DNA from: Chlamydiia bacterium
Lineage (GTDB): Bacteria > Chlamydiota > Chlamydiia > Chlamydiales > FEN-1388
DNA length: 45,711 bases
NCBI GenBank assembly: GCA_903848235.1
Contig: CAINFV010000089.1
Coordinates: forward strand, 1-45,711
Direction: 5' to 3'
Shown: positions 9,857 to 45,438 of the stretch, in pieces
How the letters are laid out: every line of letters begins with the position of its first letter
How positions within the stretch are numbered: the stretch's first letter is position 1
Translations under genes and position numbers: made by a program
Notes under the pieces: model-generated
The model's database searches: none
What the model saw: only the letters and a program-made list of their open reading frames with translations
What the model was told of the DNA's origin: nothing

Positions 9857-10016
9857 CTGGACTTTAGCATTTTTTGGGCCCGATTTCGCATTCGTTCTCT
9901 CTTTAGACGATTGCATTTATCATAGATGGCCTAACCAGGACGATCTATGATAAATGCAATCGTCTAAAGAGAGAACGCTCTGCGAACTCGGGTGCCCAAA
10001 AAATGCTAAAGTCCAG
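9857..10016. repeat. Palindromic element family A, full-length copy (160 bp)
   Basis: Perfect 23-bp outer stem (9857-9879/9994-10016) and perfect 35-bp inner stem (9893-9927/9943-9977); homologs at 21533 and 45110. Confidence 0.92.
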
Positions 10017-10058
10017 GTTAAGTTTTTTTTACTGTTTAAAGAATATCGAGGTGACACT

Positions 10059-11012
10059 ATGACATGCACTGCTATTTCAGAGGCTTCCAGGGGTACCGTA
10101 CTTAGCTTGGATGTCCCTGTAGAATGTATTTCCGCAGCTCCGGAGCTTGTAGGTCGTGATAAACCTGTAGAGGTAGCTCGCGCTGCGCTTGCGGCTGCGG
10201 TGGATGCTGGGCACACTGCGTCGCATGCACACAAACCAATAAAAGCCAGTGTTCATCACACGGCGGATACTGCCCAAAAATCCAAAGAAGCGACTGTTTC
10301 TGTGGCGCAGGACGTGCAAGCCTATTTTAAGGCGAGAAAAGAAAAGATGGTACAGAGACTGGAGGCATGGAAAAAGGATTACGATCCGGCTCCAGGGTTT
10401 CCCTATTCCTGGCTCCCGAATATGAGCAAGATTGTACATATAGAATCTTTTGACGTTTTAGAGGCATTTGTGGCAGGGGTATCCCATGCTACGACACGGG
10501 AAAAAATTGATAGTATCCTCAAAAAGAACGTACAAATCATGAAGGACAGCATGTTCTGCATGAATGCGGCCACAGTAGCCAAGATGACTGAGGGGTGTAA
10601 GATTATTGAACACGAACGCAAAATGCTCGGCTGTCCCGAAAGAGCTCCTAAAAAGCCCGAAGAGAAAAAACCCCGGGTGGTTGCCCTTGATGACCCGTTG
10701 TTTTCTCAAAAATCGCGGCTGATGAAAAAACTCGAAGAGTGGCGGAAGGATTTTGATCCACAACCTCAATGTCTGCTTGCCTGTTTACCGGGGATTGTCG
10801 ATAGCCTTTCAACGAAAGCAAAAAGATTATTCGATGGCTTATACAAGGGCGTCGTCAAAGTTGAAAAAGAGAAGTTTACGAAATTTCTCGAATCACACCG
10901 AGATCTGATACTCAGTTACAGCAGTTTTGTTAATTCTTTGACAGCAGCAAAGCTCGCTGCCGTGTGTGAGATACTTAGCCTCGAAATCGATGAAGCGAAA
11001 GCACGAGCATAG
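10059..11012 (+). CDS. Hypothetical protein with two copies of the WKKD(F/Y)xP domain; paralog of 8610-9479
   Basis: GAGGTG RBS before ATG 10059 (longer ORF start 9954 lies inside the palindrome); AWKKDYDPAP and EWRKDFDPQP 124 aa apart. Confidence 0.7.
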   Translation: MTCTAISEASRGTVLSLDVPVECISAAPELVGRDKPVEVARAALAAAVDAGHTASHAHKPIKASVHHTADTAQKSKEATVSVAQDVQAYFKARKEKMVQRLEAWKKDYDPAPGFPYSWLPNMSKIVHIESFDVLEAFVAGVSHATTREKIDSILKKNVQIMKDSMFCMNAATVAKMTEGCKIIEHERKMLGCPERAPKKPEEKKPRVVALDDPLFSQKSRLMKKLEEWRKDFDPQPQCLLACLPGIVDSLSTKAKRLFDGLYKGVVKVEKEKFTKFLESHRDLILSYSSFVNSLTAAKLAAVCEILSLEIDEAKARA

Positions 11013-11034
11013 TAAGAGGTAGTCCCTTCTTTTT

Positions 11035-11068
11035 TGTCTTCAGCTTCTTGTGGTAGAAGCTGAAGACA
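11035..11068. terminator. Hairpin between convergent genes (probable terminator)
   Basis: TGTCTTCAGCTTCT / AGAAGCTGAAGACA perfect 14-bp stem. Confidence 0.6.
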
Positions 11069-11073
11069 TGTGA

Positions 11074-12384
11074 TTACGCATCCTCCCACTTTTTTCTGTT
11101 TAGCCGTTCTTGTTGAAGTCGTTGTTGTAGAGCAACGGAGTCAACAGGTTGGGAAAATTGATCAATGATGGATCCATCATACTTGATAGCGGTTACTTCG
11201 CGTTCCGTTGCTGATAGGGTGATTTTGCAGAATTGCCGTGCGCTCATCGTTTTATCCAGATACATCGTCCGGCTGGGTTTTTTCGGAATCCTGGGTTTGA
11301 CACCCCAAGATCCATTCCCGATATAGACGACGCCCAGAGGATCAGTACGATCTGAGGTGAGAGGAAAGGTGCGTTTATAGGCATGGTCATGGTTTTCAAA
11401 GGCAATGTGGAGCCGATAGGTGTCAAAAATAGGAACGAAGTTGCGCCGTATGGCGCTGCTGTAGGTATTTCGATATGGCCTGACATCGGGGTAGGCAGGG
11501 ACGTGGTAGACAGCAATCCGATTCAGCATCTTGGAGTCTTTTGACATCTCCTGGGCGAGCCATTGGGATTGTTCCCCGCCTGTTGGATGGGTATGCCCTG
11601 AGTCGAGGAGATAGAGGGAGAGGTAGGTGCCAAAGCGGAGTGTGGTATATCCTCTCTCTCCTGGACTTGCAAAAAGGTGGTAGAAGAAGGGAGCCTGTTC
11701 TGGCGTCTGCCCATAGCCTCCTTTTACCTCATGGTTTCCGATGGTAACGAGAAGGGGGATGATTCGTCCGTCCTTGGTTTTCATCTGTTGATACCAGTGT
11801 TCGAGCCATTCGAGCCAGCGATTGCAGTCTTCTTTTTTCTTTGGATTGTTCGAGGCAGCGCAGGCAAGGTCACCTCCAATGACAACAAAAGCTGGGTTTT
11901 GACTTGCTGCTTGCTGGTTTGTTTCGTCAAAGATATGAAGATTCGAGAGGTTGGTATCCCCTCCTATGATAAAGCTGATAGGACTGTCGAGAGCCTTTGG
12001 CATGGTCAAAAAGAGATGTTCTTCAGAATATCCATCAATGGTAAATCGGTATGTTGTGTCAGGCAACAGACCCATAATTGATGCTTTGTGGACATAATAT
12101 GGCTGCTCTTCGGGGAAGGGATTGTGCGCCGCTTGCGCTGATTCCAAAGGCGCTTCTGGTTGGTCTTTGCGATAGTGAACAAAGGCAGCTTCTTCAGGCG
12201 CACCCGAGATCCACTGGACGACCATGGTTGTCGATGGGTCTGCTACCCAGGTGAGATAAATGGAGAGGGGGGCTTGGGGAGATATGATCTCTTCGCCAGT
12301 CAGGAGCAGGGGAAGTAGGAAAAGAATAAGAACAATTCTGACGAATGAGTTCGTGATTCTTGTTTTTGTGGTCATAAAGTGCAT
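11074..12384 (-). CDS. Purple acid phosphatase-like metallophosphoesterase (FN3-like N-domain + calcineurin-like domain), exported
   Basis: GGD, GGDL, GNHE, YH, NHDH metal motifs; hydrophobic leader; GLLPDTTYRF. Confidence 0.85.
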   Translation of the reverse strand: MHFMTTKTRITNSFVRIVLILFLLPLLLTGEEIISPQAPLSIYLTWVADPSTTMVVQWISGAPEEAAFVHYRKDQPEAPLESAQAAHNPFPEEQPYYVHKASIMGLLPDTTYRFTIDGYSEEHLFLTMPKALDSPISFIIGGDTNLSNLHIFDETNQQAASQNPAFVVIGGDLACAASNNPKKKEDCNRWLEWLEHWYQQMKTKDGRIIPLLVTIGNHEVKGGYGQTPEQAPFFYHLFASPGERGYTTLRFGTYLSLYLLDSGHTHPTGGEQSQWLAQEMSKDSKMLNRIAVYHVPAYPDVRPYRNTYSSAIRRNFVPIFDTYRLHIAFENHDHAYKRTFPLTSDRTDPLGVVYIGNGSWGVKPRIPKKPSRTMYLDKTMSARQFCKITLSATEREVTAIKYDGSIIDQFSQPVDSVALQQRLQQERLNRKKWEDA

Positions 12385-12395
12385 GACTTTTGTTT

Positions 12396-13220
12396 TTATC
12401 TCGACGATCGTAACAATTGATAATATTCCTGGAATAAGTCTACTACTTCGCTCGGATTCTCTATCCAGGGAAAATGACCGCCATTGGAGATTGTCCTCAT
12501 TACGATGTTTACATGATGGAAGCTCTCCGATTCAATGAATAATTTTAATGGAGTTATTCGGTCATGTTCTCCGGCGAATATCAGCGTAGGGAAGGAATGA
12601 GGAATCCACTTCGCTTTGTATGTGCTGTCAAAGTGTTGATCTGACCATTCACAAGCTCGAAAGTTATATGGAAGATCTTCTAAAAATGAGAATTGTTTTC
12701 TTCCGTTTTCTTGATTTGAAAGATAAGGAACTGAAGCCAGTGTGACACATTTTAGTCGTTCGTTGCTGGGGGCTTCTGAGTACGCCTTTTGCAGTTGCGT
12801 AAGGTTCGGAAGAGGGTTTTTTTGGGTAAACTGCAAAAATTGTTCCTGCCATCTCATGTCAGGGGCAGAATCCATCAGTACTAGGCCTACAAGGGCCTTC
12901 TGTAATTCTGGGGTGGCTAAGGCATACATCCCCCCCGTTGAATGGGCTACTAAAATGACATTCTCAAAAGCGTGGACAGCCTCTATCAACGCTTCTTGCC
13001 ATGAAGAAAATGGCTGGTTGACCTGAACATTAGAACCATCTCCAGGTAAATCTAAATGCCATATCGTTCCAGGCAGCACTAACAACCGGGTGAGAGGAAG
13101 TAATGATTCAGATCCAAGTCCTGGACCTCCAGGGAGAAAAACCCAATTCAGGGTGTCTTCAGGTGTTGACCGGATGTATTGCAGGCGTGCATGTCCATGT
13201 GTCCATAAGGAACTTGTCAA
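12396..13220 (-). CDS. Alpha/beta-fold hydrolase
   Basis: PGGPG, DLPGDG, AHSTGG nucleophile elbow, GEHD, GHFPW; start overlaps htpG stop. Confidence 0.85.
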   Translation of the reverse strand: MTSSLWTHGHARLQYIRSTPEDTLNWVFLPGGPGLGSESLLPLTRLLVLPGTIWHLDLPGDGSNVQVNQPFSSWQEALIEAVHAFENVILVAHSTGGMYALATPELQKALVGLVLMDSAPDMRWQEQFLQFTQKNPLPNLTQLQKAYSEAPSNERLKCVTLASVPYLSNQENGRKQFSFLEDLPYNFRACEWSDQHFDSTYKAKWIPHSFPTLIFAGEHDRITPLKLFIESESFHHVNIVMRTISNGGHFPWIENPSEVVDLFQEYYQLLRSSR

Positions 13221-15055
13221 ACCGTTTTCTCAGGTCCTTTGTCTTCTGTTCTTGCAGTAGCGCAAACCAGCTCTTCTACTACCCTCGTTGATCTGTCCGT
13301 GAAAGCCTGTAGCTCATCATGGGACATCTCTTTGTGTGAGAGCCGTGTGACATCCCAGATATAGAGTGCCACGTCATGAGCCAGCTTTGGGTGGGTGGTG
13401 TGTACCTTGTACAGCGCTTGTACAAGAGGACTATTGGTGTTAATGATTAAGCTTGCTTTGGGTTTGAGAGCATGTGGTTGACCAGAAACACGTGTCATAT
13501 AATCTCGAAAACGGCGCTCTTCTTCTGCTAATGTCATCACGGCAGGGAGGGACTGAATATCAAGGCTCTTCGCATCGATGGTCAGCGATTGATCTCCAAT
13601 AGCGGTTCTAAAAAAGTCCGCGATCTTTGCACCTTCAGTGCGGCCGGAGGCATCGAGAACGGTTTTTTCTTTTGAGGCATCAAGCAATGTGGTGTCTAAC
13701 GTGGCGTCTACTCGTCGGAAATCGATTCCCTCTTCGCGCTCTAGTTTTGTCATCAAGGGGTGGTCGATAGGAGAAGTTAAGACAGCAACGTCAATGCCTT
13801 TTGACGTATATGCAGTGACGAGTGATGAGCGCTCTTGCCCCCCTTCGCAGTAGACGATAGTTTTCTTTCCCTCTTTTTCCTGAAGGAGTTCTTCTGTTGT
13901 CTTCCAGTGAGAGGATGCCGTTTTCCAGATGAGGAGGCTGTTAGCACGTTCATAGAATTTCTGATCTTGGAGCATCCCAAATTTTACCACGAGCTCATAG
14001 GCATCCCAACATGCTTCAAAACGGGGCCTATCATTTTTGAAGAGTGCAGAGAGGGCATCTGCGACTTTCTTTGAGATGTGCTGTGCTAACTGCCGAACTG
14101 TTGAGTCTACTTGCAGATGGCTTCTGGATACGTTTAGCGGGATGTCAGGGCTATCGAGGACACCTCGAAGGAGGACAAGATATTCAGGGAGGATGTCTTT
14201 GGCATTGTCGGAGACAAACACTCTGTTGCAGAAGAGTTTGACATGATCTTTCGAGAGCTCGATCTCTTTGCGAATTCGTGGGAAATAGAGCAACCCTTGC
14301 ACGTGGAAGGGATAGTCGACGTTGATATGAACCCAGAAAAGAGGCGGCTCTTCGAACGGGTAGAGCGTTGTATAAAAGCTTTTATAGTCAGCGTCAGTGC
14401 ATTCGGAGGGTCTTTTTTGCCAAAGTGCATGATGCGTGTTAATTTTCTTACCGTGGAGGTACACAGCGGTGGGGAAGAATGCGCAAAACCGTTGGAGGAT
14501 TGTGCTAAGGGTAGACTCTTCTAAGTACTCTTCTTGGTCGGGGCTGAGGTGAAGGATGATATCTGTCCCTACTTCTTCTCGCTGCCCCTCATCAATGGTA
14601 TATGACGTAGAGCCATCGGATTTCCAGATGATGGCCTTCTTGTTGGGCTTATATGATCTGGAGAGTACTTCCACATGATCTGCTACCATGAATACCGAGA
14701 AGAACCCTAATCCGAAGTGACCGATAAAGGTGTCATTTAGCTGATAGGTTTTAATGAATTCCTCAGCACCTGAAAAGGCGATTTGAGCAAGGAAGGTCTC
14801 TGCCTCTTCTTCGTCAAGTCCAAGGCCTGTGTCAGAGAAAGTGAGTGTTTTCTTCTCTTTGTCGATGGAGATATCGATTCTGGGTTCATGAGGAGCGGAA
14901 GCTTCTCCCTTCGCGTGGAGGATGCTCAGTTTCTGAATGGCATCGGCGGCATTTGAGACAAGTTCTCGAACGAAGATGTCTTTTTCTGAGTACAGCCACT
15001 TTTTGATGATGGGCAGAATATTTTCGCTATGAATGCTTAAGTTACCATTTCGCAT
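13217..15055 (-). CDS. htpG: Molecular chaperone HtpG (Hsp90)
   Basis: LYSEKDIFVRELVSNAADA, DTGLG, IGHFGLGFFS, DIPLNVSRS. Confidence 0.96.
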   Translation of the reverse strand: MRNGNLSIHSENILPIIKKWLYSEKDIFVRELVSNAADAIQKLSILHAKGEASAPHEPRIDISIDKEKKTLTFSDTGLGLDEEEAETFLAQIAFSGAEEFIKTYQLNDTFIGHFGLGFFSVFMVADHVEVLSRSYKPNKKAIIWKSDGSTSYTIDEGQREEVGTDIILHLSPDQEEYLEESTLSTILQRFCAFFPTAVYLHGKKINTHHALWQKRPSECTDADYKSFYTTLYPFEEPPLFWVHINVDYPFHVQGLLYFPRIRKEIELSKDHVKLFCNRVFVSDNAKDILPEYLVLLRGVLDSPDIPLNVSRSHLQVDSTVRQLAQHISKKVADALSALFKNDRPRFEACWDAYELVVKFGMLQDQKFYERANSLLIWKTASSHWKTTEELLQEKEGKKTIVYCEGGQERSSLVTAYTSKGIDVAVLTSPIDHPLMTKLEREEGIDFRRVDATLDTTLLDASKEKTVLDASGRTEGAKIADFFRTAIGDQSLTIDAKSLDIQSLPAVMTLAEEERRFRDYMTRVSGQPHALKPKASLIINTNSPLVQALYKVHTTHPKLAHDVALYIWDVTRLSHKEMSHDELQAFTDRSTRVVEELVCATARTEDKGPEKTV

Positions 15056-15093
15056 AACAATACCGTTCCTTCAAAAATAAAAAGATGAATAAA

Positions 15094-15122
15094 AGTATCG
15101 CTTTTTTCTGCGCGGATGTCAA
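15094..15122 (-). promoter_or_regulatory. Sigma70-type promoter of htpG
   Basis: Minus strand TTGACA-N17-GATACT, about 40 bp upstream of ATG 15055. Confidence 0.6.
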
Positions 15123-15221
15123 TTAGCTATGCTGGTCTCCTCGTGTATGTGAAGAGAGATTGAAGATAACTCTATGTGGCTGTATACAGAGAAAATGAGA
15201 AAGAACTCTCAATAAGAAGAG

Positions 15222-16517
15222 GTGAGAACAGTGGAACATATCGACTGGATCACGATGTCCTATGCGATTATTGCCTTTCTCCTGATTGGCGTTGGTCTTT
15301 CATGGATTATTTTGATCACCCATTCTTTTTTTGCCCCGCATGGCTCCTGTGTTATCGATATAAATGCAGATCCTGAGCTGACGAAGAATGTTGAGGCTGG
15401 CGTGACGTTGCTTCATGCTCTGACAAAAGAAGGAATTGCCATACCATGTCCGTGTGGCGGTCGTGCTACATGCCACCAATGTCGATTGCAGGTTGTCGAA
15501 CGTGCTGATCCGCCTTTAGATACTGATGTTGCTGCCTTTACCAGGCATCAGCTGAAAGATGGCTGGAGATTGTCATGTCAGGTGAGGCTGAGTCATGATC
15601 TTGGAGTGAAAATACCAGAGCATCTGTTGAAAGTTAGGGAGTTGACGGCCACGGTGATCTCGAACAAAAACGTGGCAACGTTTATCAAAGAGTTAGTTGT
15701 CCATCTTTCGCCAGGAGAGAGAATCGACTATCGGCCTGGTGGCTACTTACAGATTCGCATTCCTCCATACATGACGAATACCGATGATTGGAAGTCATCT
15801 ATTGACCCACAGTTTTGGCCGGACTGGGAACGGTATGGGATGTTTGGCAAAAAGCTGAATTGTATAGGCCATCCTGAGGAGCCGCGCGCCTATTCGCTCG
15901 CTTCGTATCCTGCCGAGGGTGAGAAATTGATGTTTAATATCCGCATTGCAACATCTCCATTAGAGGGAGGAAGGGTCTCTACGACGGTTCCTTGGGGATT
16001 TGGATCTTCATATCTTTTCTCTCTTAAGCCTGGTGACACCATTCGCGTGACTGGCCCTTATGGGGAGTCGTTTATGAAAGAGGGGACGAACGACGTTTAC
16101 TTTCTTATTGGCGGGGCTGGGTCGTCTTTTGGAAGAAGCCATATCTTGGACCTATGCCGTACCAAACAGACAAAGAGAAATGTGGCGATGTGGTACGGAG
16201 CGCGCTCTTTGCGGGAAAATATCTATCAACAAGACTATGAAGACCTCGTCAAAACATGTCCGAACTTCTCATATAACCTTGTCCTGTCAGAGCCGACGCC
16301 GGAAGACATTCAGCTTGGGTGGCCAGCGAAGGACCCTCTCAAAACAGCCTTTTTATTCAAGGCGTTTGAAGCAGGAGCGTTGAAAAAAATGCGAGCTCCT
16401 GAGGAAAACCTCTATTATGTATGCGGACCGCCTATGCATAACAGAAGTGTGATGAAACTTCTCGACGACTATGGTGTTCCGAGAGAGAATATAGTGCTCG
16501 ATGATTTTGGCAATTGA
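15222..16517 (+). CDS. nqrF: Na(+)-translocating NADH:quinone oxidoreductase subunit F
   Basis: N-terminal TM helix, CGGRATCHQC...RLSCQV 2Fe-2S motif, NVATFIKEL, RAYSLASYP, GGAG, YVCGPP, LDDFG. Confidence 0.95.
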   Translation: MRTVEHIDWITMSYAIIAFLLIGVGLSWIILITHSFFAPHGSCVIDINADPELTKNVEAGVTLLHALTKEGIAIPCPCGGRATCHQCRLQVVERADPPLDTDVAAFTRHQLKDGWRLSCQVRLSHDLGVKIPEHLLKVRELTATVISNKNVATFIKELVVHLSPGERIDYRPGGYLQIRIPPYMTNTDDWKSSIDPQFWPDWERYGMFGKKLNCIGHPEEPRAYSLASYPAEGEKLMFNIRIATSPLEGGRVSTTVPWGFGSSYLFSLKPGDTIRVTGPYGESFMKEGTNDVYFLIGGAGSSFGRSHILDLCRTKQTKRNVAMWYGARSLRENIYQQDYEDLVKTCPNFSYNLVLSEPTPEDIQLGWPAKDPLKTAFLFKAFEAGALKKMRAPEENLYYVCGPPMHNRSVMKLLDDYGVPRENIVLDDFGN

Positions 16518-16532
16518 AATTACGCGGTCATA

Positions 16533-17540
16533 ATGCACACATATTCTAGACTTTTAGTGCCTTTTATCACGTCTATTGCACGAGAGTGCGACGTGAGAGC
16601 CCTTGATGCTGCAGCTTTGAGGATACATCAGAAATATACAGGAAGTTCTGTTCGCCCGTTAGAAGGTATGGCAGAGCATGTTGCCTATGTGGCCTGCCGT
16701 ATGCCGGCGACGTTTGCCGCGACCCTTCAAGCGCTGAACCATCTCAAACAGGTGATCCCAACATTTGCTCCAGCATCTGTTCTTGATATTGGAACAGGTC
16801 CTGGCACTGCTCTTTACAGCTCGATGTTGACCTTCCCTACCATAGGAAGAGGACTTGGCGTAGAACGTAGCGCTGAGTTTTGTGCTCTATCAGAGCAGCT
16901 GTTTGCATCTATTCCATCCATGGCCTCGTCATGCAGTGTTATCAGGGGCGACCTAGAACGAGCAGGGAATGTCGAGGGCTCGTTTGACCTGATGACTTCT
17001 GCCTATGTATTAGGGGAGCTCTCAGAGAAGTCTCAGGATCGGTGGTTAGCTTTTGCCAAAGAGCGATCGAAGGTGCTGGTATTAGTAGAGCCGGGGACCC
17101 CAGCAGGCTGGCAGTGTCTTATGCGATGCCGGGATATTCTCCTCTCGCAATGAGCCGCCATTCTCGCCCCCTGTCCGCATAGTAAGCCGTGCCCTTTTGT
17201 TGGAACTGATGTGTGGTGTCATGAAGCAGTACGACTGCCGCGGACAGCGCTTCATCGAAGACTTAAAGGGGGGCAGTTGGGATATGAAGATGAAAAGCTG
17301 TCGTACCTAGCTGTGACGTTTGACCCGTTATTGCCGAAAGTGGTGCCTCCCTGCCGTATTGTCCATGCCCCCCGCAATCGCCATGGGCATACGCATCTGG
17401 TCTTGTGTACGTTTCGCGGGTGTTTGGAGCCAACGATTATCTCTCGCAAGTACAAAGAACTGTATCGTATGGCACGAGAGGCGGAATGGGGAGATTCTCT
17501 CCCAGAGATGAAAGAGAATTGGGTCATTCCACAACAGTAA
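16533..17540 (+). pseudogene. Rsm22-family SAM-dependent methyltransferase interrupted by one in-frame TGA (17151-17153)
   Basis: AYVACRMPATF, LDIGTGPGT, YVLGEL, VEPGTPAG, then LSQ*AAILAPCPH..CP, EDEKLSY continuing in the same frame to TAA 17540. Confidence 0.8.
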
Positions 17541-17555
17541 AGAAAAGGCGTTATA

Positions 17556-19070
17556 GTGAAGCTGTTTTTGGCTCAGATAAATCCTACTGTCGGCGCTGTC
17601 TTCCATAACCTCAATCGCATTCTCCATGCTATTATGGAGGCGAAGACTGCTGGGGCAGATATCATTGTCTTCCCCGAGCTTGCTCTGTCTGGCGCCCCTC
17701 TTAACGACCTGCTGTTTCACCATGATTTCGTCGAGAAATGCGAGCAGGCTCTTCAGAGGATAGCTGTTGCATCTGCTGGCATTACTGTGGTCGTTGGCAG
17801 CCCTGCGACAGATGGAAGATCTGTTTTTGACGCTGCTATTGTCTTTCACAATGGCATAGAGATAGGTCGCCAACATGATGTCTGTTGGGTGTGGGAGGCA
17901 GGTGACAAAAAAATTGCTGTTCTTGTTGGAGAAGGGGAGATAGAAGAAATTTCTGGAAAAGCAGATCTCATCGTCCATCTCGTCGCATCTCCTTGGAGCA
18001 GAGAAGCAGTAGAGGTCAGAGAGCGCTCTGTCAAAGAGCGTGCGAGGAAGTTCCAGCTGCCCTATCTCTTTGTGAACCTCGTTGGTGGCAATGATGGATG
18101 GATTTTTGATGGCAATAGCTTTTTCTGCGATGCCCATGGGTCAATTGTATTTCAAGGGCGGGCCTTTGCAGAAACCATCTGTATGGTCAAGGCGGGAGAA
18201 CATCTGTCGAGGAGAGTCTCGCTGATAGAAGAGGTTCACCAGGCGCTTGTCTTAGGGATTGCAGACTTCTTTAAAAAGCAGGGTGTCAGCGACGCTGTTA
18301 TTGGGCTGTCAGGAGGGATTGACTCTTCTGTCACCGCGACGCTTATGGTAGAAGCTCTCGGCGCCTCGCATGTCCATGGCGTTGCGCTTCCATCCAGGTT
18401 CACCTCTTCAGAGAGTGCTCAAGGTGCTGGCGAGCTTGCCTCTACCCTTGGCATCTGCTTGAAGACGATTCCAATAGAGAGGGTGGTAGAAGCTGCGACT
18501 GAAACGTTGAGAGGTGCCAATGTTTTGGCAGAAGGGGTTACGGCAGAGAATCTCCAGTCCCGTATTCGCGCTCTTCTGCTCATGGCGATCACAAATGCTG
18601 AAGGAAGCCTTCTGATAGGAACTGGCAATAAAAGCGAGGTCTCACTTGGATATACAACACTTTATGGTGACCTTTGCGGGGCACTTCTTCCAATAGGAGA
18701 TCTGTTTAAAATTGAGGTGTATGAACTAGCTCGCCACCTCAATATACACAAAGAGGTCATCCCGTTGAGTATTCTGCAACGGGCTCCTACCGCAGAGCTG
18801 CGCCCCAATCAAAAGGATGCCGATGACCTGCCTGCGTACGAGCTGCTCGATCCTGTGCTTCGATTGCTGGTGTTAGAGGGGCTCTCGCCTCTTGAAGTAA
18901 CCGCCAAGACGGGTATGAATCTGAAGATCGTACAACGATTAGCTGACAAGCTGCTCAAGATGGAGTTCAAACGTCGCCAAGGGCCGTGTATCTTGCGAGT
19001 CTCTTCGAAGGCCTTTGGTACCGACATCCTCTATCCGATAGTCAATCAATACGCGGTATTCCCTTCGTGA
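17556..19070 (+). CDS. nadE: NAD+ synthetase, two-domain type with degenerate glutaminase (nitrilase-fold) domain
   Basis: AQINPTVG, FPEL, GLSGGIDS, ENLQSRIR, TGNKSE, YTTLYGD, PTAELRPNQKD, EFKRRQ. Confidence 0.93.
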   Translation: MKLFLAQINPTVGAVFHNLNRILHAIMEAKTAGADIIVFPELALSGAPLNDLLFHHDFVEKCEQALQRIAVASAGITVVVGSPATDGRSVFDAAIVFHNGIEIGRQHDVCWVWEAGDKKIAVLVGEGEIEEISGKADLIVHLVASPWSREAVEVRERSVKERARKFQLPYLFVNLVGGNDGWIFDGNSFFCDAHGSIVFQGRAFAETICMVKAGEHLSRRVSLIEEVHQALVLGIADFFKKQGVSDAVIGLSGGIDSSVTATLMVEALGASHVHGVALPSRFTSSESAQGAGELASTLGICLKTIPIERVVEAATETLRGANVLAEGVTAENLQSRIRALLLMAITNAEGSLLIGTGNKSEVSLGYTTLYGDLCGALLPIGDLFKIEVYELARHLNIHKEVIPLSILQRAPTAELRPNQKDADDLPAYELLDPVLRLLVLEGLSPLEVTAKTGMNLKIVQRLADKLLKMEFKRRQGPCILRVSSKAFGTDILYPIVNQYAVFPS

Positions 19071-19074
19071 ATTG

Positions 19075-20655
19075 TCATGGCTCTGTAGGAAAATAAAATG
19101 CAGGGTCATAGTGGTGGCTTGCAGGATTAAAAAGAACGGGGATGTCGTCAGGTGTGAGCTGGTCGAGAGGCAGGAGTTGATTTGACTTCATGATGACGAC
19201 GTGGCCGGCTATCCCTGAGCTTTTTCCGTTCAACAACGGGATCGAGATGCCCAATAAGTCTTGTAAGGAGAAAATATCTGTAGCGCTTCCCCAGAGTGTA
19301 GGAGGGGAGGTAGGCATCATGGCAAGCAAGTACTCATCAGTGGTATGCTCTTCCTGGTCTGAAGTAAACTCGTGATCGCGCATAGCGAATGAAAAAAAAT
19401 CGGCATCTTTCATGTGTCGGTTTAGCTGCCCTGCAAGGCTTAATTCTCGAAGAAGCAGAGCCCATTTGTTCCGTCTTTCTGCGTTTATCAAAATGGCAGT
19501 GATTTCTTGTGGCGCATCTAGTGAAATGTGTGCCTTAAGCTCCTGCCATTCGGTTGCGATGTTTATTGGAAATTTTAACAGTTTGTCTCCACCTTCCACT
19601 GATGCCGTAAAAAAAATCGCTGATGCTTTTGCAACGGCTAAATCCAGCTTTTGTAGCAACTCATCTCTCTGAATGCGTGACAACATTCCAATAGCAATTG
19701 AAGTAAACAGGCAATTTCCATCACCTATGGCATGGCAAATTTTGAAACCTGCTTTCGAAATCAAATCAAGGCCGAAAGCGTTGTCCTTTTCCTCCTTAAA
19801 TGCTTGGGTCTCTTCAGCGGGAGCATCGGGGATGCTTTTTTTGATTGCCTGGGTGAGCGTTTCTAATTCTGTTATAAATTGTGGATCGTCCATAGCCCTT
19901 TTCTCATTGCCACTCTCGAGAATTCTTAGCGCTTGTTCATGAGCTTGTTCCTCGCGGGTTAGTTTCTTTGGGTAGGTTGGGATAATGTCGAGCAGTCTTC
20001 CACCTAGCGTTTCATTGACAACTCCTGGGCTCGGAAATCCGTGGGCTTGAAGAAGCAATGGTTCTAACGCAGGTGGTGGGGGCGCTTCTTTCTGCAAAGC
20101 AAGGTCTTCTGCGGACAATGGTACCAAAGGGGCCTTCGGAGAGGTCGCGTGCTCAGAGCTTCCTGACAGTTTTTCGTCTAGCGTTTTCTTGGCCATTTCT
20201 AGGCTAGGAGATCCTTGGGTAAAAGCAGGGTTGTGTGCTGAAGCGGCCTCTGAAGGGCCCATGTGATGTTCGGGAAGCTTAGGGCTTTCTACGCGCTTGC
20301 GCTCTGGATGGGGTAGTGTCTTCGCAAAGAGAGTGTCGATGAGAGCCACATCAATCGGGGGCACCTTCCTGGATGCGTTATATTTACGAATCTTCTCTGT
20401 GAGGGGATCTTTAAGTCTATTCAAAACGATTTCTTGATTTTGATTTAGCCCCCTTTGGCTTACATTCGTGAGAATATTCGGAAGTTTAAAGGACTGATGA
20501 TCGAAGATATTGGCTAACAACCATGTGAACACCCCCTTTTTTCTGGCGGTGAGATCATTTCCTTTCAAGCGAAGAACGTATTGATCGGGAAATTTCAAGA
20601 AATCACTTATTCCCTTCCCTAAATTGATCATGGATAGCTTCCTTTTCAGTCTCAT
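19075..20655 (-). CDS. OTU-domain deubiquitinase-like protein, candidate secreted effector
   Basis: GDGNCLF (19705-19725), WGS, C-terminal HYD (19105-19113); true start may be ATG 20630. Confidence 0.75.
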   Translation of the reverse strand: MRLKRKLSMINLGKGISDFLKFPDQYVLRLKGNDLTARKKGVFTWLLANIFDHQSFKLPNILTNVSQRGLNQNQEIVLNRLKDPLTEKIRKYNASRKVPPIDVALIDTLFAKTLPHPERKRVESPKLPEHHMGPSEAASAHNPAFTQGSPSLEMAKKTLDEKLSGSSEHATSPKAPLVPLSAEDLALQKEAPPPPALEPLLLQAHGFPSPGVVNETLGGRLLDIIPTYPKKLTREEQAHEQALRILESGNEKRAMDDPQFITELETLTQAIKKSIPDAPAEETQAFKEEKDNAFGLDLISKAGFKICHAIGDGNCLFTSIAIGMLSRIQRDELLQKLDLAVAKASAIFFTASVEGGDKLLKFPINIATEWQELKAHISLDAPQEITAILINAERRNKWALLLRELSLAGQLNRHMKDADFFSFAMRDHEFTSDQEEHTTDEYLLAMMPTSPPTLWGSATDIFSLQDLLGISIPLLNGKSSGIAGHVVIMKSNQLLPLDQLTPDDIPVLFNPASHHYDPAFYFPTEP

Positions 20656-20890
20656 GTTAAGAGGGGGTTAAGAATCGCGGACCGGATACGTAAAACCAAT
20701 TCCCCTTAAATATCTACATATCTAGAACAAGTATTTTAGTCAAAATTATTCCTTCTCATATTAGTTTTATTTATAGACTATTCAATTATGAATTTATATA
20801 ATGTAGTTTTCTTTCGATTAGAACGTTTGTTTAATCGATAGAATGTTTGAGATATGTTTTTCGTAAAAAAAGTTACCAAGGGAGAAAACT

Positions 20891-21187
20891 ATGTCTTCTG
20901 CACAAGTCGAAGTACCAGGCCCCCAAGGAGTCGGATCGAAGAAAGGGATTCACTTCAAGCCACTCATCGATGGCATCGAAGCGTTGACCAAACAAGTTGT
21001 TGCCAAAATCGATGCGATCAGGAGCAAAAGCGGCGAAGTTGGGGGAGACCAAGAGATGAGCATTGCTGATATGTTCGATCTCCAAATGTCGATGACGAAG
21101 CTCAACCAGTTCTCAGAGATGTCGACCTCTGTTGTTTCTGCTATGAATACCGCTATTAACACTATGGCACACAACGTAAAAGGTTAG
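20891..21187 (+). CDS. cdsF: Type III secretion needle subunit CdsF/SctF-like protein
   Basis: C-terminus MFDLQMSMTKLNQFSEMSTSVVSAMNTAINTMAHNVKG follows the chlamydial CdsF pattern; 98 aa; GGAGA RBS. Confidence 0.75.
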   Translation: MSSAQVEVPGPQGVGSKKGIHFKPLIDGIEALTKQVVAKIDAIRSKSGEVGGDQEMSIADMFDLQMSMTKLNQFSEMSTSVVSAMNTAINTMAHNVKG

Positions 21188-21240
21188 TCATGGTTGCCGC
21201 AGTTCCCGCTTAAACTGGGCTTTATCAAGGGGAAAAACGC

Positions 21241-21273
21241 AAGCCATCGAGCACCTGCTGCTCGATGGCTTTT
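21241..21273 (+). terminator. Intrinsic terminator after cdsF-like gene
   Basis: AAGCCATCGAGCA / TGCTCGATGGCTT 13-bp stem plus T run. Confidence 0.7.
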
Positions 21274-21372
21274 CCATCCTCGAATTTTTTAGCAGGAACT
21301 GTTGCCATTGTATTTCTGTTCTCTCTCTCTAGACTATTCATTCAAATGGTTGTATAATCTCTCAGACTGGAG

Positions 21373-21531
21373 AGGCTTTTGCAAAACTGGCGACCGCGCT
21401 CTACTTGTGGCGGTTCGTGCTTAGCTTCGATCTCTCCTCACCTATAGTTACCACTATGGGTTTCGTCGAGATCAAAGCTATGCCCTTCGCCGGCACTTCG
21501 CATATCGCGATCGCGAGTTTTGCAAAAGCCT
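21373..21531. repeat. Palindromic element family B, copy 1 (159 bp)
   Basis: Terminal inverted repeats AGGCTTTTGCAAAACT / AGTTTTGCAAAAGCCT; collinear homolog at 45279-45438. Confidence 0.88.
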
Positions 21532-21532
21532 G

Positions 21533-21624
21533 TGGACTTTAGCATTTTTTGGGCCCGATTTCGCAATCGTCTAACAGAGAGAACGCTCTGAGAACTCTGT
21601 GCCCCAAAAAACGCTAAAGTCCAG
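21533..21624. repeat. Palindromic element family A, internally deleted copy
   Basis: Retains TGGACTTTAGCATTTTTTGGGC and GCTAAAGTCCAG ends, lacks ~68 bp of the centre. Confidence 0.9.
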
Positions 21625-21659
21625 TCAGAACAAATATGCTGCAGCCAAGGGTGTTGGAT

Positions 21660-24284: not shown

Positions 24285-24294
24285 GAATGGTTAT

Positions 24295-27591: not shown

Positions 27592-27595
27592 GCAT

Positions 27596-27755
27596 ATACC
27601 ACTGACAGTTGAAAGTCGCATACCTGCCATCGAAAAAGCCCGCATCTTCGAGTCGGTAAAAACAACCCCTACTTTTAGTAGCGGGTCTGTTTTTGCCGAT
27701 CGAATCTGCGGACTTTTTCTTCGGCATCTATCCAACTTTCAACTGTCACCGGTAT
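27596..27755. repeat. Palindromic element family C (160 bp) between convergent genes
   Basis: ATACC..TGACAGTTGAAAGT / ACTTTCAACTGTCA..GGTAT ends with imperfect pairing along the whole length; an extra GACAGTTGAAAGTCG follows at 27764-27778. Confidence 0.85.
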
Positions 27756-27787
27756 TTCCCGCCGACAGTTGAAAGTCGAGCTTAGGC

Positions 27788-31315: not shown

Positions 31316-31348
31316 GGAATCCCCTCCTTCCCGTCATTGGTGGGAGCT

Positions 31349-31370
31349 TATACTTCTTCTTGTTCAAGAA
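31349..31370 (-). promoter_or_regulatory. 22-bp recurrent motif (copy 3, TTCTTGAACAAGAAGAAGTATA)
   Basis: 21/22 identical to copy 1; ends 34 bp upstream of ATG 31315. Confidence 0.6.
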
Positions 31371-31559
31371 AAAAATATATTTGTTCTGATCTCATATATA
31401 GGCAAAAATAAATATTTAATATACGGGTTTTGCCATGACGGTCACAATCGCTGTTGTAGAGAGCCATTTTGTGGCCTTTACGACTAACGCCAATGCTAGC
31501 CTATAAATTTTTGAAAATGAAGGCGTGCCATAGGATGCTATGGCAACAGGCTAAAGCCA

Positions 31560-34500: not shown

Positions 34501-35117
34501 AGCTCTTCGATCTTCTGGAGATACCGAGCTTGAAGAGCCTCAAGTTTAGCGCGCGTTTTCGTCATCGCATCTTCTTGCAAGGAGGAGAGGGTGGTGTTCG
34601 ATAAAGGTTCTTTGCGAAGGTAGAGCAATTGGGATGAGAGAGCAGCGCCTTCAAGAAGAGTCAGTCCGCCACGTAATGGCCCATCGATAAACACTCCTTC
34701 GAGTATGAGACGAAGAGAGCGGCATTGAGGTTGTGTGTACTGAGCGGACTGTTCTAAAAGGACGTGGAGCGTGTTTAAAAGGGAGGCATACCCTGGTTCA
34801 CCGGCAAAGGGGGAGAAAATCGTCTGAAAGTTTTCTAAAAGGTCATGTGCTGGCGTTTCTTTCAGGTAGGCGGCATTGATGTGGCGAAGGAAGCTCGCCC
34901 GTTTTTTCCTGAGCGAATTCGTTTCTTCCACCATTGAAAGAAGAGGGGAGGGTTTGGGCCCTATGGCGTCGAGTAATGTTTCGTGTACAACATGTACCTC
35001 TTTGGAGGCTGGGAGCGGCTCTTCTTCGAAGGAGGCGTGAAGATAAGGAGCGGGGTGGGGTTGAATTGTGAATTGGGCAAAGACTGTTGTGAGTTGAGTT
35101 ACTTGTGATTCTGACAT
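31560..35117 (-). CDS. Large hypothetical protein with RQxxxGSC motif
   Basis: 1185-aa ORF after an AT-rich spacer; LTYWRQHCLGSC, THSFRLLP, FADSNF motifs. Confidence 0.7.
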   Translation of the reverse strand: MSESQVTQLTTVFAQFTIQPHPAPYLHASFEEEPLPASKEVHVVHETLLDAIGPKPSPLLSMVEETNSLRKKRASFLRHINAAYLKETPAHDLLENFQTIFSPFAGEPGYASLLNTLHVLLEQSAQYTQPQCRSLRLILEGVFIDGPLRGGLTLLEGAALSSQLLYLRKEPLSNTTLSSLQEDAMTKTRAKLEALQARYLQKIEELKAIGIYNFQSLRCTLIPLAIAQTLVLPNGELNLGMADQVQDLFLATKDQRDSVEKHISTTLKKLRSDSSLQKAIEAIPSPPQGLYGTRIINNALMRPHDTPVTAYDTHQVCLATCLTYWRQHCLGSCVLDSLLSEKQISGLRWLIDDMKELLFLGYMTRYYRGIPEMFLGLEVPETVALYNKITDVRSLRGSRLEACIKENAQLDNPQWNAVLAKNPKTMHELLQKIKALFPGTLREEECDRIRLLIESPTQSPLLRVIENTLGSTLCPPFSPYSQTSWEVPFTTMRRIFNCFNKIALRFGLDALIKKIQEFHSFLEKPLLQVGKPSGSALTPIEHLRLQWIPSPFPFLYAGREIPGAFAFFFQEEDRLRPLSRREFQQLLFQSFDALFAEVYEKKPLPKGILPETFLPSVGLEIFGAYVIEHHGIHDILPVFSKHYPRSPNNHTSPIDSTKRGFLLWLRGLRQSQEQGEDLSFRATTATHSFRLLPNDPSFSKFPLFSFKDELLALDSSTRAVIEQSFQQIPAETVNDIVSYFVEQCSHEVWIHFQDAHVKTSFQGKLLAQLKADVLDAIKEQSLSFSLLDYTNTIPSIIRDAISTAVRKGVPHAFIVTHKPHEWIRDHLQLSDSVDNLLHDLYSHATNLPPHASLFRISDDPLVRQETLLAQCIQTPLKDIPSFDQDLPKFYSLINFLVQQGCREVTLRLHTIHKKVCFTFSEIDAIHKGVLQILRPELENQESTIDEIIATFDTALHTELARKIQARFWGPLTQTIRRLPQRTLIDNMQISLSPSDLHYLLITRFAESCPQYQNLLIHFADSNFGITLSEKLLAIHYCFWFDPFVNTWAIVSATETGQFYEGAKAENLSLGDITLTESPQPVLDEARRTSLLVQQRKCIKKSQQLERTFADALMAVEQHADDVDFESLLEGKEDPMAGAPVALEHATPLTRARALLAMEPPHNLPSSVERCLAIIATHAELRNSPH

Positions 35118-35212
35118 AAGAAAAAGCCTTTTTAATATAATTTAACGTTATTGAAAGAAGATATTATTTTATTAATAAAACATAATTCGCGATCTTTCAA
35201 TTAATGGGAGAA

Positions 35213-36151
35213 TTAGGAGATTTCCCAGGCGATAGGCATCACGTCTGCAATCGACGTTGCACTCTCGCGGATCATAAGGAGTCGATCAAAGCCGACAGCA
35301 ACGCCGCAGCAATCAGGAAGTCCTCTTTCTAATGCTGAGAGGAATGCATCGTCAATAGGATACATCTCTTTTCCCTGGGCCTGCCGGTGTGCATTATCAG
35401 CAGAAAAACGGGCTCTTTGCTCATGAGGATCTGCCAGTTCATGGTATCCATTTGCCAGCTCCAGGCCTTCGCAATAGATTTCAAACCGTTCGGCAACCTT
35501 CTGCCCGTTGTCGGTGGTCTGGCGAGCCAGGGCCGCCTGTGAGGCTGGGTAATGGTATAGAACCGTAATGGCCTTAGGATCAAAGGAGGGTTCTACCTTG
35601 ATGGCTAACAAGAGATTGAGCAAATCATCACGAGAGCTTGTTTTGACTGGGTAGCCTTCGAAAGCAGTACAGGCATCTTGAAGCTGTTGGAGGGAAGAGG
35701 TGAAAGGGTCGATCTTGGCATGGGTGATAAAGGCGTCGCGGTAGGAAACAAATCTCCTCTGGCGTTCTCCAATGAATCGTTCAGCAAATTCAATCGTTTC
35801 ATCCATCATTTCAGAGAAGGAAATCCCAATGCGATACCACTCTGCAAGAAGAAATTCCGGTGAGTGGCGAGCGCCAGCTTCTTCATGGCGCCACACATGG
35901 CCGAGGTAAAAAATTTCTCCGGAGCCTTCGCTCAGCAGGCGTTTCATAGGAAATTCGGGGCTGGAAAAGAGAAAACGCTGTCCATGGATCAGTGAAGAGG
36001 TCGAAAAGAGATCAATATTGACATCTACAGAGGCTTTTGGACTTAACGCCAGACAATCTACTTCCACGATGCTACGTTCTGCAAAAAAAAAGCGTGCTGA
36101 AGCAATAGCTTCAGCACGGCGTGAGAGTTTTGTTCTGAGAGGCGATTCCAC
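35213..36151 (-). CDS. epmA: EF-P lysine aminoacylase
   Basis: SSPEFPMKRLL, HSPEF, YPASQAALA, ERFE, ELANGYHEL, GVAVGFDRL; adjacent to efp. Confidence 0.93.
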   Translation of the reverse strand: MESPLRTKLSRRAEAIASARFFFAERSIVEVDCLALSPKASVDVNIDLFSTSSLIHGQRFLFSSPEFPMKRLLSEGSGEIFYLGHVWRHEEAGARHSPEFLLAEWYRIGISFSEMMDETIEFAERFIGERQRRFVSYRDAFITHAKIDPFTSSLQQLQDACTAFEGYPVKTSSRDDLLNLLLAIKVEPSFDPKAITVLYHYPASQAALARQTTDNGQKVAERFEIYCEGLELANGYHELADPHEQRARFSADNAHRQAQGKEMYPIDDAFLSALERGLPDCCGVAVGFDRLLMIRESATSIADVMPIAWEIS

Positions 36152-38157: not shown

Positions 38158-38170
38158 TCTTCTTTGTTTT

Positions 38171-38215: not shown

Positions 38216-38216
38216 C

Positions 38217-39221: not shown

Positions 39222-39271
39222 GGATAACCTCTCCGTTAAGGACTGTCCAACGTATTTTTGTGCACAGTCCC

Positions 39272-42705: not shown

Positions 42706-42939
42706 GTGTGCCTTCTTCGTTCATTTACAAAAAGTCCAGCATATAGTGAGAGGGAATATCGCAAAAGGGTAGTTCTAAACGAGTAGTGATATAATTCTAT
42801 ATCCATATCCATCATTACAACACATGTTTTTCGCTGCTATTTATATATCGCTGTATTATTTATCCGCGACCGATAATTACATGCTTGAAGAAGTTATGTT
42901 TTAGTATAATATTTTCGTTTTAGTTTCTAATAAAATAAA

Positions 42940-43527: not shown

Positions 43528-43607
43528 GATGAGTTCAGGCAGCAACTTGGGTTTCAACATGCGGGACATCATGCAACCGCTTTTCGTAAAAAAATGGGTA
43601 CGAGAAC

Positions 43608-44945
43608 TTAATGATCCCCTATGGTTCCTTGTCGTAATAATGCTTTTACCTCAGCAGGAGCAAGTGGCTCGAGCCTATATAAGCGATCTATAAAGCCTTC
43701 ATTGTCGAATAAACGAAATGCTAATGAATAAAATTCGCTCTTAATTATCTCGCTGCTTTCTATAACCGATCGAAGTTTTTCATTTCTTAGTATCGCAATA
43801 AAACGACTAGGCAGCTTGGCAGCTAAGGACTCATCCTTCGTTGCTTCAGCAATACTGGTTAACAGATTCAACGTCCGAAAAATTGCAAAAAACTTGTCCT
43901 CTGGTCTTGCCATATCTACGGTTCGCATTTCTTGACTTAAGGCATTTAGAGCTTTATCAAATGCTCTGACGTTAACATCCATGAAATCGGGTGCAAGAAA
44001 TGTTCTATAAATAGTTAAGGCAATTTTTTTTGATTCGTCAGGAATGGCAGTGAAAGAATATAAATCAGATAATGACTCAGCAAGTTGCAGATGAGAAAGT
44101 GTGGAAAGAAGTTGAGATACAACAACTCCTTTTTTCTCTGGTAAAAGATCAGTCATATACAAAAAGGAAACGGTGAGAAGATCCTTTTTGTCCTGATCTG
44201 ATAGATTTTTCAGCAATTCGTCAGGGATTGTATCACCCGATTTCACAAATTCGTAACTTCTATAGTACGGTTCCCTTGCAAGGATTGTATCGCAAATTCC
44301 CAAGAGCGCCCTGAGCGCAGTCTTTTCCTTGTACGTTAACTCTTTGTCGCACTCACTTAAGAGGGCTTGAGAATGTCTTGATACTTCTTTTACTCCAGCA
44401 AGAGTTGTGGGATCGAGACTCGGTGAGCCGAGTAGCTCGCCCTCCAAATTCGCGATTGCCTCCTGAATTTGCGGCAAGATAGAACATTTTTCTGTCGCTG
44501 CTATGAGTGCTTTTCTCTGCGCTGATGTCGGATCCTCTGATGCAAGCATTTGGTCAGCTCTTCGTTTGATTTCGGAAAAACCTTTTACAAGAGCGACTAG
44601 GTTTGTTGTTTTTTCTCTTAGCTTATCCACTTGATTCGTTAGATCCCGAATTGAACCTGATAGATCCCGATGGGGAGTCCTAGGGGGCATATGCTCGTGA
44701 GGTTTTACTGATGTCACCATTGTTTCAGAAGCTGTCAACGGTGATTCCTCATGAGGTAACTTCTCGATCTTTGCTTTCGAGACATGCTCGACTTGTCGTC
44801 CTTCTCCAACTTCACCTCCCCCTATCCCAGCAGCAGCGGCAGCCGTTTTAACCGTCTCTAGACCTGGCGTATCACTGCTAGGCTTTGGTGTTCCTGGTGA
44901 TTGAAAAGATGGCCCTTCTCCTTCTATTCTTGTATCCCCAGACAT
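43608..44945 (-). CDS. Hypothetical protein, low-complexity N-terminus plus helical/coiled-coil region; candidate effector
   Basis: GGAGG RBS before ATG 44945; Ser/Pro/Gly-rich start, heptad-like IRDLTNQVDKLREKTTNL. Confidence 0.65.
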   Translation of the reverse strand: MSGDTRIEGEGPSFQSPGTPKPSSDTPGLETVKTAAAAAGIGGGEVGEGRQVEHVSKAKIEKLPHEESPLTASETMVTSVKPHEHMPPRTPHRDLSGSIRDLTNQVDKLREKTTNLVALVKGFSEIKRRADQMLASEDPTSAQRKALIAATEKCSILPQIQEAIANLEGELLGSPSLDPTTLAGVKEVSRHSQALLSECDKELTYKEKTALRALLGICDTILAREPYYRSYEFVKSGDTIPDELLKNLSDQDKKDLLTVSFLYMTDLLPEKKGVVVSQLLSTLSHLQLAESLSDLYSFTAIPDESKKIALTIYRTFLAPDFMDVNVRAFDKALNALSQEMRTVDMARPEDKFFAIFRTLNLLTSIAEATKDESLAAKLPSRFIAILRNEKLRSVIESSEIIKSEFYSLAFRLFDNEGFIDRLYRLEPLAPAEVKALLRQGTIGDH

Positions 44946-45109
44946 GCAACAACCCTCCAATAAATCTATGCTGTATCTCGGTCCTCATTTATCCTCATAT
45001 ATATTTTTTGTGTATATTTGTACACAATTCTAGAGGCGTGCTACATGATCTTCACACGGATCTTCTTGGAGTCAAATCAAAAAGCCCAAAACAAAACATG
45101 CGTAACCTG

Positions 45110-45274
45110 AGCTGGACTTTAGCATTTTTTGGGCCTGATTTCGCATTCGTTCTCTCTTTAGACTTTTTGCATTTATCGTAGATGGCCTAACCAAAGACGA
45201 TCTATGATAAATTTATTCGTCTAAAGAGAGAGCGCTCTGCGAGCTCGGTGCCCCAAAAATGCTAAAGTCCAGCT
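45110..45274. repeat. Palindromic element family A, full-length diverged copy
   Basis: AGCTGGACTTTAGCATTTTTGGG / CCCAAAAATGCTAAAGTCCAGCT ends; collinear with 9857-10016. Confidence 0.92.
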
Positions 45275-45278
45275 GAGA

Positions 45279-45438
45279 GGTTTTTTGCAAAACTAGCGGT
45301 TGTGCTCTGCTCGGGGAGGCTCGAATAGAGAGGGTATCTCTCACCTCGCCCATAGCTAGCGCTATTGGCTTTGCCGAGATAAACGCTCCCTTCGTCGCCG
45401 GCGCTTGCATATCGCAGCCGCTAGTTTTGCAAAACCCC
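45279..45438. repeat. Palindromic element family B, copy 2
   Basis: TTTTGCAAAACTAGCGG / CCGCTAGTTTTGCAAAA ends; collinear with 21373-21531. Confidence 0.88.

Follow-up and report, generated by a model that had tools for sequence, protein, structure and literature searches.

Why should six long hairpins of about 160 bp, belonging to three sequence families, lie on a single chlamydial contig? The contig in question (CAINFV010000089.1, here C89) was analysed at its full length of 45,711 nucleotides, which we call the window, and comes from a Chlamydiia metagenome-assembled genome (MAG; GCA_903848235.1, here G000) of 2.35 Mb in 284 contigs, 93% complete and with 47.5% G+C. The original prediction, made from the window alone, distinguished families A, B and C, regarded them as non-autonomous mobile elements with transposases encoded elsewhere, and offered either a common enzyme that recognises structure and length or a class of structured RNA to account for their likeness. 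[quoted passage not shown] All counts below are subject to the same caveats: a fragmented MAG, small families, and related genomes that are not independent samples.

All six elements lie where they had been predicted, each as a single long hairpin, with limits now refined from family-wide end alignments. A self-reverse-complement BLAST search of G000 recovered every full window copy together with the large genome-wide population that had been expected: 208 centred palindromes, 139 of them at least 80 bp long and 73 of 160-170 bp. The 139 longer palindromes fall into 17 clusters, nine with at least two members, and clusters 0, 1 and 4 correspond to families C, A and B. Using end anchors, we counted at least 97 complete copies in seven families (A, 18; F2, 12; F6/8, 5; B, 7; F3, 12; F5/7, 11; C, 32); this is a lower bound, and the 163-bp window element B2 was not picked up by the anchors. 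The shared size of about 160 bp is real and sharpens in the genome-wide set, where family medians span 158-162 bp (A, 160; F2, 158; F6/8, 162; B, 161; F3, 162; F5/7, 159; C, 159). Individual lengths range over 157-163 bp in A (plus one copy of 178 bp with a nested mini-element), 155-159 bp in F2, 155-166 bp in F6/8, 159-164 bp in F3 (one of 141 bp), 159-163 bp in F5/7 (one of 149 bp) and 158-162 bp in C, and all seven anchored copies of B measure 161 bp. A putative 112-113-nt subclass of family A was rejected, its copies being cut by contig ends.

The copies are mostly intergenic, as predicted: 92 of the 95 complete copies of at least 150 bp lie between genes and three lie inside open reading frame (ORF) calls, which are crude both here and in the orientation counts below. 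That no transposase is encoded inside is trivially true at this size. Collapsed, centre-symmetric copies of 20-81 nt and solo ends of 17-20 nt are common in G000. Some collapsed copies consist of the two termini only (20-46 nt; C107:12022-12047, equivalent to L010:365-390, C109:3260-3303 and C45:21044-21072) and suggest that the palindrome body was deleted by hairpin processing or slippage. Judging from the centre-symmetric copies, the palindromes appear to be processed as hairpins in vivo.

Each family is flanked, at a fixed offset, by its own type of target duplication. Exact 5-bp duplications border 10 of 17 copies of A and six of 12 copies of F2; exact 4-bp duplications border six of seven copies of B and four of five copies of F6/8, the latter at a YTAR-like target. 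Exact 3-bp duplications were found for F3 (6/12, T-W-A) and F5/7 (8/11), though in F5/7 the duplication is possibly 5 bp in truth, because flanking T and A are present in 11/11 copies. In family C, 18 of 32 copies are bordered by TA at both ends. Insertions of one element into another give a second measure. Family B is found in the terminus of A three times, in both orientations and always with the same 4-bp duplication (window position 21372 and contigs C2 and C53), and on contig C67 a copy of the C2 subfamily is nested in a copy of the C1 subfamily at a TA, while tandem C copies have one TA in common. The nested insertions fix the duplication lengths independently.

The ends of the elements were then compared with those of insertion sequences (ISs). 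Transposase genes of the IS5, IS1634, IS1182 and IS701 families are present in G000. When 12 MITE ends were scored against 13 IS ends, the 15 best of the 156 pairs all fell within four combinations: A with IS701 (z up to 5.8), C with an IS630-family element from the same-family genome G011 (5.7, for subfamily C3), F3 with IS1182 (4.7) and B with IS701 (about 4). The IS701-family element at C69:10420-11921 is 1502 bp long with inverted repeats of 19 nt, and additional ends of it lie at C105:786 and C9:5658. Its product of 454 aa matches NCBIfam NF049999 (IS701 family) at 270.7 bits against a cut-off of 170. Family A shares its first 9 nt with the C69 ends, the alignment is invariant in 14 of its first 17 columns, and the ends of window element A1 align with the same inverted repeats; the interior of family A is unrelated to this IS. 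In ISfinder, the IS701/ISAba11 family is reported with duplications of 4/5 bp. On its ends, family A thus appears to be an IS701-family-derived MITE.

For family C, the IS630-family element of G011 (L036:911-2564) has TA on both sides, a 347-aa ORF with a DDE_3 match of 117 bits, and inverted repeats that match the family-C ends, including a 14-nt block identical with subfamily C3; the ends of window element C1 are related to the same repeats. DDE_3 genes occur in five of 22 genomes of the same family. The check for IS630 transposases proposed with the original prediction thus succeeded in a relative, but not in G000, where DDE_3, DDE_Tnp_4 and DDE_Tnp_1_2 (Pfam) gave no match, an absence that does not imply a real lack given a MAG that is 93% complete with IS interiors mostly missing. 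From its ends and TA target, family C appears to be an IS630/Tc1-mariner-derived MITE. The ends of F3 resemble the inverted repeats of an IS1182-family element on contig C198, which is probably its partner. The ends of family B weakly resemble IS701-type ends. The prediction had treated ends that match a catalogued IS as the mark of ordinary MITEs; such ends were found for A (IS701), F3 (IS1182) and, through the relative, C (IS630), but not for B, and by that measure the elements count as ordinary MITEs.

Some candidate partners did not hold. A high-copy IS end (cluster 3) was rejected as the parent of family C, with 7 nt in common with the C ends and no TA flank. Another IS end (cluster 9) has 10 invariant columns of 37 with B, all in the first 25, and is unremarkable in the end-versus-end scoring, so that it serves as a lead only. 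Searching the IS loci against whole MITEs by BLAST returned just neighbouring MITE insertions. High-copy IS ends of at least five kinds break off at G000 contig ends, with overlaps of about 141 nt (for example C10:1-142, C150:9718-9856, C22:1-180 and C141:7581-7792). The transposase inventory of G000 is incomplete because IS interiors are mostly not in the MAG.

Taken together, the elements have the features of MITEs: they are small (155-166 bp for complete copies), contain no transposase gene, carry terminal inverted repeats, have a fixed duplication per family, occur as many dispersed copies and have ends that match ISs. They are non-autonomous; each family has its own duplication, the ends match elements of the IS701, IS630 and IS1182 families, and the different families appear to use different conventional enzymes. 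The prediction of non-autonomous elements with transposases encoded elsewhere is supported by the duplications, the nested insertions and the IS-matching ends. Its single shared enzyme is not: duplications are 2, 3, 4 or 5 bp by family, and the ends of A, C and F3 match three IS families.

Consensus comparison grouped the clusters as {A, F2, F6, F8}, {F3, B}, {F5, F7} and C alone; as predicted, no sequence relation links the consensuses of A, B and C to one another (z ≤ 1.5 against palindromic shuffles). All families have the same length and pair end to end. Within them, B, F3 and F5/7 share a core in which a 7-bp tip stem, with a loop of 4-5 nt, has CTCCTC(R) before it and (N)TCGTC after it, all enclosed by an outer stem. 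The internal loop is pyrimidine-rich and conserved, with CTCCTC on the 5' side and CGTC on the 3' side, and the core is strand-specific because the loop positions are T.T and C.C self-mismatches. In an alignment of 25 cores from the three families, 90.7% of cells are paired and 64 cells carry double changes; none of 500 shuffles scored as high, and slid controls pair at 22-44%. By eye, and unscored, a comparable tip stem is seen in some C subfamilies.

A covariance model of this core (R1; 72 positions, 13 pairs) was built from G000 only, where it has 52 sites. At E ≤ 0.001 it detects the core in 33 of 150 other sampled Chlamydiota genomes and in 26 of 89 genera (the genus of G000 included), often with many copies per genome; it has no hit in the 27 genomes of one family (f22, 1.0-1.2 Mb). 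Of 19 foreign R1 loci tested by BLAST, nine are centred palindromes of 160-173 bp with various termini, one is a palindrome of 219 bp, four are shorter or cut and five show none. Across 21 foreign genomes the loop motifs are kept in at least 75% of rows, 13 of 13 pairs show double changes and 87.1% of cells are paired. One genome, G178, has 128 R1 hits; 400 kb of it were sampled for centred palindromes, and 42 of the 58 found measure 160-180 bp. Its main family is TA-flanked, with C-like termini joined to an R1 core, and core and termini have therefore been combined differently between genomes. On its 2.585-Mb contig C1, with the origin near 0.33 Mb and the terminus near 1.43 Mb as placed from 20 sampled 20-kb windows, the pyrimidine-loop strand is the GC-skew-positive strand in 82 of 128 R1 hits (Fisher p 0.002; one genome, with noisy strand calls for weak palindromic hits), and the ORFs of G178 have no skew-strand bias (144 vs 142).

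By BLAST, 40 relatives yielded no family-A copy except for a single 46-nt end in G003, and a search for A and B in 22 genomes of the same family returned nothing but one B-like sequence in G002. In 400 sampled Chlamydiota, with just two candidates scored per genome, no match to family C was seen. The same-genus genome G001 has six R1 hits, although A, B and C are missing there by BLAST.

In the proposed mechanism, each family would be moved in trans by a DDE transposase that recognises terminal inverted repeats of about 20-26 nt and leaves the family-specific duplication. The partners would be the IS701-family IS of G000 for A, an IS630-family IS for C, probably an IS1182-family IS for F3, and for B some enzyme that duplicates 4 bp; we infer mobilisation in trans by the IS701-, IS630- and IS1182-family enzymes. 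The size of about 160 bp and the end-to-end pairing would come from a chassis widespread in environmental Chlamydiota rather than from one enzyme, and B, F3 and F5/7 would still carry its core. Insertion of one family precisely within another's terminus offers a route by which different termini could have been grafted onto the chassis. Intrastrand template switching, in which one arm is copied onto the other, could both graft termini and keep the arms complementary. Hairpin-based copying and processing, a mechanism known from quasipalindromes, would maintain the complementarity of the arms. The core is probably under selection in single-stranded form, because mismatches are kept while the stems change; the selected form could be a DNA hairpin or cruciform that helps the ends meet or the element survive replication, or it could be RNA.

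Several observations weigh against this reading. Conserved loop cores are lacking in A and C, the R1 hits in G000 being B, F3, F5/7 and their kin, so the data do not establish that all families descend from a single chassis; given that the consensus sequences of A, B and C bear no relation to one another, their equal length could also be convergence. Where one arm of a DNA palindrome is copied from the other, covariation is to be expected even in the absence of selection; the E-values of R1 are rough owing to a shortened calibration, and the 21-genome alignment (A6) was fitted to the R1 model. On the side of the enzymes, G000 yielded neither an IS with ends like those of family C nor a DDE_3 gene, so that the candidate partner of C is the IS of a relative with 20 of 26 end positions matching. 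No partner IS was found for family B. No IS701 copy is assembled complete with both flanks in G000, and none shows its own duplication length. Regarding filled and empty sites, the orthologous intergenic regions of G001 are too diverged for clean empty sites, and the A1 region is not alignable. Logan contigs of four runs covering window 9000-28900 show no filled/empty polymorphism and none skips a whole element, at an organism depth of about 3-5x that is too shallow to judge.

One could go further and take the module of about 160 nt itself as the unit of selection. It would have swapped termini of about 20 nt repeatedly among at least three to four unrelated DDE families (IS630, IS701, IS1182 and others) and would act single-stranded at replication, favouring its own transposition or survival either as a DNA hairpin that synapses with itself or as a site for protein binding. 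That would explain why the length is fixed and the mismatches are kept, and also the replication-linked orientation bias in G178. We regard this extension as tentative, and the odds are against it in this full form.

Among the other explanations, the one that survives best denies common ancestry and has the lengths converge on an optimum set by the host, long enough for the ends of stiff, short DNA to meet or a cruciform to extrude, yet short enough to escape hairpin nucleases and slippage. Despite their unrelated sequences, A, B and C differ by no more than 4 bp in length, and the many centre-symmetric deletion derivatives speak of an ongoing attack on palindromes. A gene for SbcD is present in G000 (213.9 bits), and palindromes in E. 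coli are unstable above roughly 150-200 bp. For at least part of the families, however, the common core and the C-like ends with an R1 core in G178 show descent plus recombination. Bacterial MITEs elsewhere range over 80-435 bp (PMC3184786), so that 160 bp is not known as a general optimum. Convergence alone is therefore unlikely, though it deserves more weight than the remaining alternatives.

A structured-RNA class, with regulatory, processing or protein-binding functions and spread by transposition, was the second suggestion of the original prediction, either for all elements or for those bearing the core. The pyrimidine loops are indeed conserved on one strand and the stems covary across the 21 foreign genomes; copies often occupy 5' or 3' untranslated positions (B1 and A2 at alaS, C1 after mfd), and in the 400-kb sample of G178 convergent intergenic sites outnumber divergent ones by 14:1. 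Against this, the corresponding ratio in G000 is 15:21, the core follows flanking co-directional genes in six cases and opposes them in eight in G000 (3 and 9 in G178; neither is significant), and palindromic DNA yields the same covariation signal. The suggested Rfam comparison came back empty, with no match for the whole window at gathering scores or at E ≤ 0.5 (Rfam 15). We consider a functional RNA class improbable.

Still less credible is one enzyme that reads hairpin shape or length for all families, such as a Y1/HUH transposase of the RAYT or IS200 kind or another enzyme specific for structured single-stranded DNA. It would account for the equal length and end-to-end fold, for a strand-asymmetric core common to three families and many genomes, and for the tendency of the core in G178 to follow the skew-positive strand. 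Transposition of the HUH type through single strands leaves no target duplications, however, and four different duplication lengths are seen here, with ends in A, C and F3 that match three different DDE IS families. Nor does Y1 track the elements: among genomes present in both samples, Y1_Tnp occurs in 16 of 33 R1-positive and 44 of 116 R1-negative genomes, it is missing from the R1-rich G103 and G132, and G000 has just three Y1 fragments of 45 aa or less. That the hairpins are fold-back chimeras of assembly can be dismissed, since despite a fragmented MAG with overlaps of about 141 nt at contig ends, copies are found in contig interiors with target duplications and unique surroundings, the same window loci are covered by Logan contigs of four runs (where contig joints inside B1 stem from other copies), and relatives occur in other assemblies, including near-closed ones.

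Within the window, the individual elements are arranged as follows. Element A1, a complete family-A MITE of 160 bp (9857-10016), lies upstream of a gene starting near 10060; its left 5-bp target duplication (9852-9856) agrees with the right copy (10017-10021) at four of five bases. Element A2 is a centre-deleted copy of family A that has lost about 67 nt of its middle and has itself been interrupted. Its left 5-bp duplication (21362-21366) is identical to the right copy (21625-21629), and its first 5 nt (21367-21371) are severed from the remainder (21537-21624) by B1, a complete family-B MITE of 161 bp on the + strand (21372-21532) inside its left terminus. The 4-bp duplication of B1 is exact (21368-21371 and 21533-21536), and its core has the pyrimidine-loop strand on +, with R1 scoring 70.7 bits at 21416-21487. 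Together, B1 and A2 sit between the promoter-like box of alaS and its start codon. The upstream region of alaS in G001 keeps the box and lacks B1 and A2, with flanks too diverged for an exact empty site.

Element C1, a complete family-C MITE of 158 bp (27597-27754), starts 6 nt past the mfd stop codon, which ends at 27591. Its left flank is TA (27595-27596), and its right flank (27755-27756) is TT, a degenerate duplication. A solo fragment of a family-C terminus lies at 27764-27783, a few bases after C1. Element A3, a complete family-A MITE of 161 bp (45112-45272), has an exact 5-bp duplication, with its left copy at 45107-45111, and the right copy is split by B2 into 45273-45276 and the base after the right duplication of B2. 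B2 is a complete family-B MITE of 163 bp with diverged termini (45277-45439, + strand; R1 57.2 bits at 45324-45395). Its left 4-bp duplication (45273-45276) is identical to the right copy (45440-45443), and B2 was therefore inserted in the right target duplication of A3. With RNA parameters, the minimum free energies are -116.0 kcal/mol for A1, -36.5 for A2, -95.1 for A3, -79.8 for B1, -74.4 for B2 and -82.7 for C1.

The window genes alaS, mfd and htpG are ordinary. The HtpG protein is closest to uncultured records, including one named "Chlamydiae bacterium" (48% identity), and Mfd is 84% identical between G000 and G001. Downstream of mfd, window 27596-35205, which holds C1 and two ORFs of 1175 and 1185 aa with no NCBIfam match, is missing from the syntenic contig of G001, where the ortholog of window 35213-36151 comes immediately after mfd, consistent with a 7.6-kb insertion in G000 or a deletion in G001. 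Also missing from the ortholog region of G001 is window 21193-21325, a stretch of about 130 bp that lies 3' of a gene ending near 21190 and contains a perfect, terminator-like hairpin. The two genomes differ in size and fragmentation as well, with 1.5 Mb in about 50 contigs for G001. Since G001 lacks families A, B and C by BLAST, an expansion of ISs and MITEs, together with extra gene blocks, distinguishes G000 from it.

MITEs are usually explained family by family, as deletion products of one IS, and here unrelated transposase families drive one size and one fold. If the core and length matter for mobility, there would be a structural requirement in cis that is independent of the transposase, for example in end synapsis on short DNA, in a hairpin at the fork or in a host factor. 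The elements also occupy promoter- or terminator-proximal positions of the housekeeping genes alaS and mfd. Repeats break the assembly of the MAG: those with at least three further copies make up 64,568 bp in 473 intervals, or 2.7% of it, and in the largest repeat cluster 50 of 181 intervals are cut by contig ends. R1 offers a ready marker for annotating such elements in chlamydial genomes.

In the accessible portions of the literature, preprints included, our search found nothing on such elements in Chlamydiae, and the closest systems are known from other organisms. Like the REP/REPIN palindromes of RAYT and those of IS200/IS605, the core forms a strand-specific imperfect hairpin that keeps its mismatches, and those palindromes too have replication-linked orientation effects. 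Those systems, however, have no DDE-type inverted repeats, leave no target duplications and need Y1, whereas duplications are present here and Y1 does not track the elements; REPs are also short hairpins of 20-40 nt in inverted pairs, in contrast to a single hairpin of about 160 nt per element. Rickettsia palindromic elements (RPEs) are, like ours, palindromic repeats (about 100-150 bp) that have proliferated in an obligate intracellular lineage. They are known for in-frame insertion into genes, unlike the largely intergenic copies here. Among eukaryotic MITEs, Stowaway (Tc1/mariner, TA) and Tourist (PIF/Harbinger, 3-bp TWA) have the same two target types, hairpin potential and cross-mobilisation through terminal repeats alone; they differ in their hosts and their wide length spread, and we know of no report of an inner core common across their superfamilies.

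In Neisseria, the Correia or NEMIS elements are MITEs of about 100-160 bp that are flanked by TA and have inverted repeats; in their middle lies a functional motif, an IHF site, which PMC3184786 mentions. Correia is one family with one presumed transposase type that pairs mainly at its ends, whereas the elements described here pair along their whole length and involve several transposase classes. Stable stem-loops are also formed by bacterial MITEs of 80-435 bp, for which good descriptions exist (PMC3184786, PMC4853749), and in the former paper they include Nezha of Anabaena/Nostoc (130-170 bp), Chunjie of Geobacter (178-235 bp) and Qixi (165 bp). The chlamydial elements resemble these IS-derived MITEs in being small, non-coding, multi-copy and mostly intergenic, with direct repeats, stable stem-loops and inverted repeats shared with ISs. 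They differ in that at least seven families, with four duplication lengths and matches to three IS families, nevertheless have one length and one fold, and in that three of the families carry an asymmetric core that recurs across a phylum.

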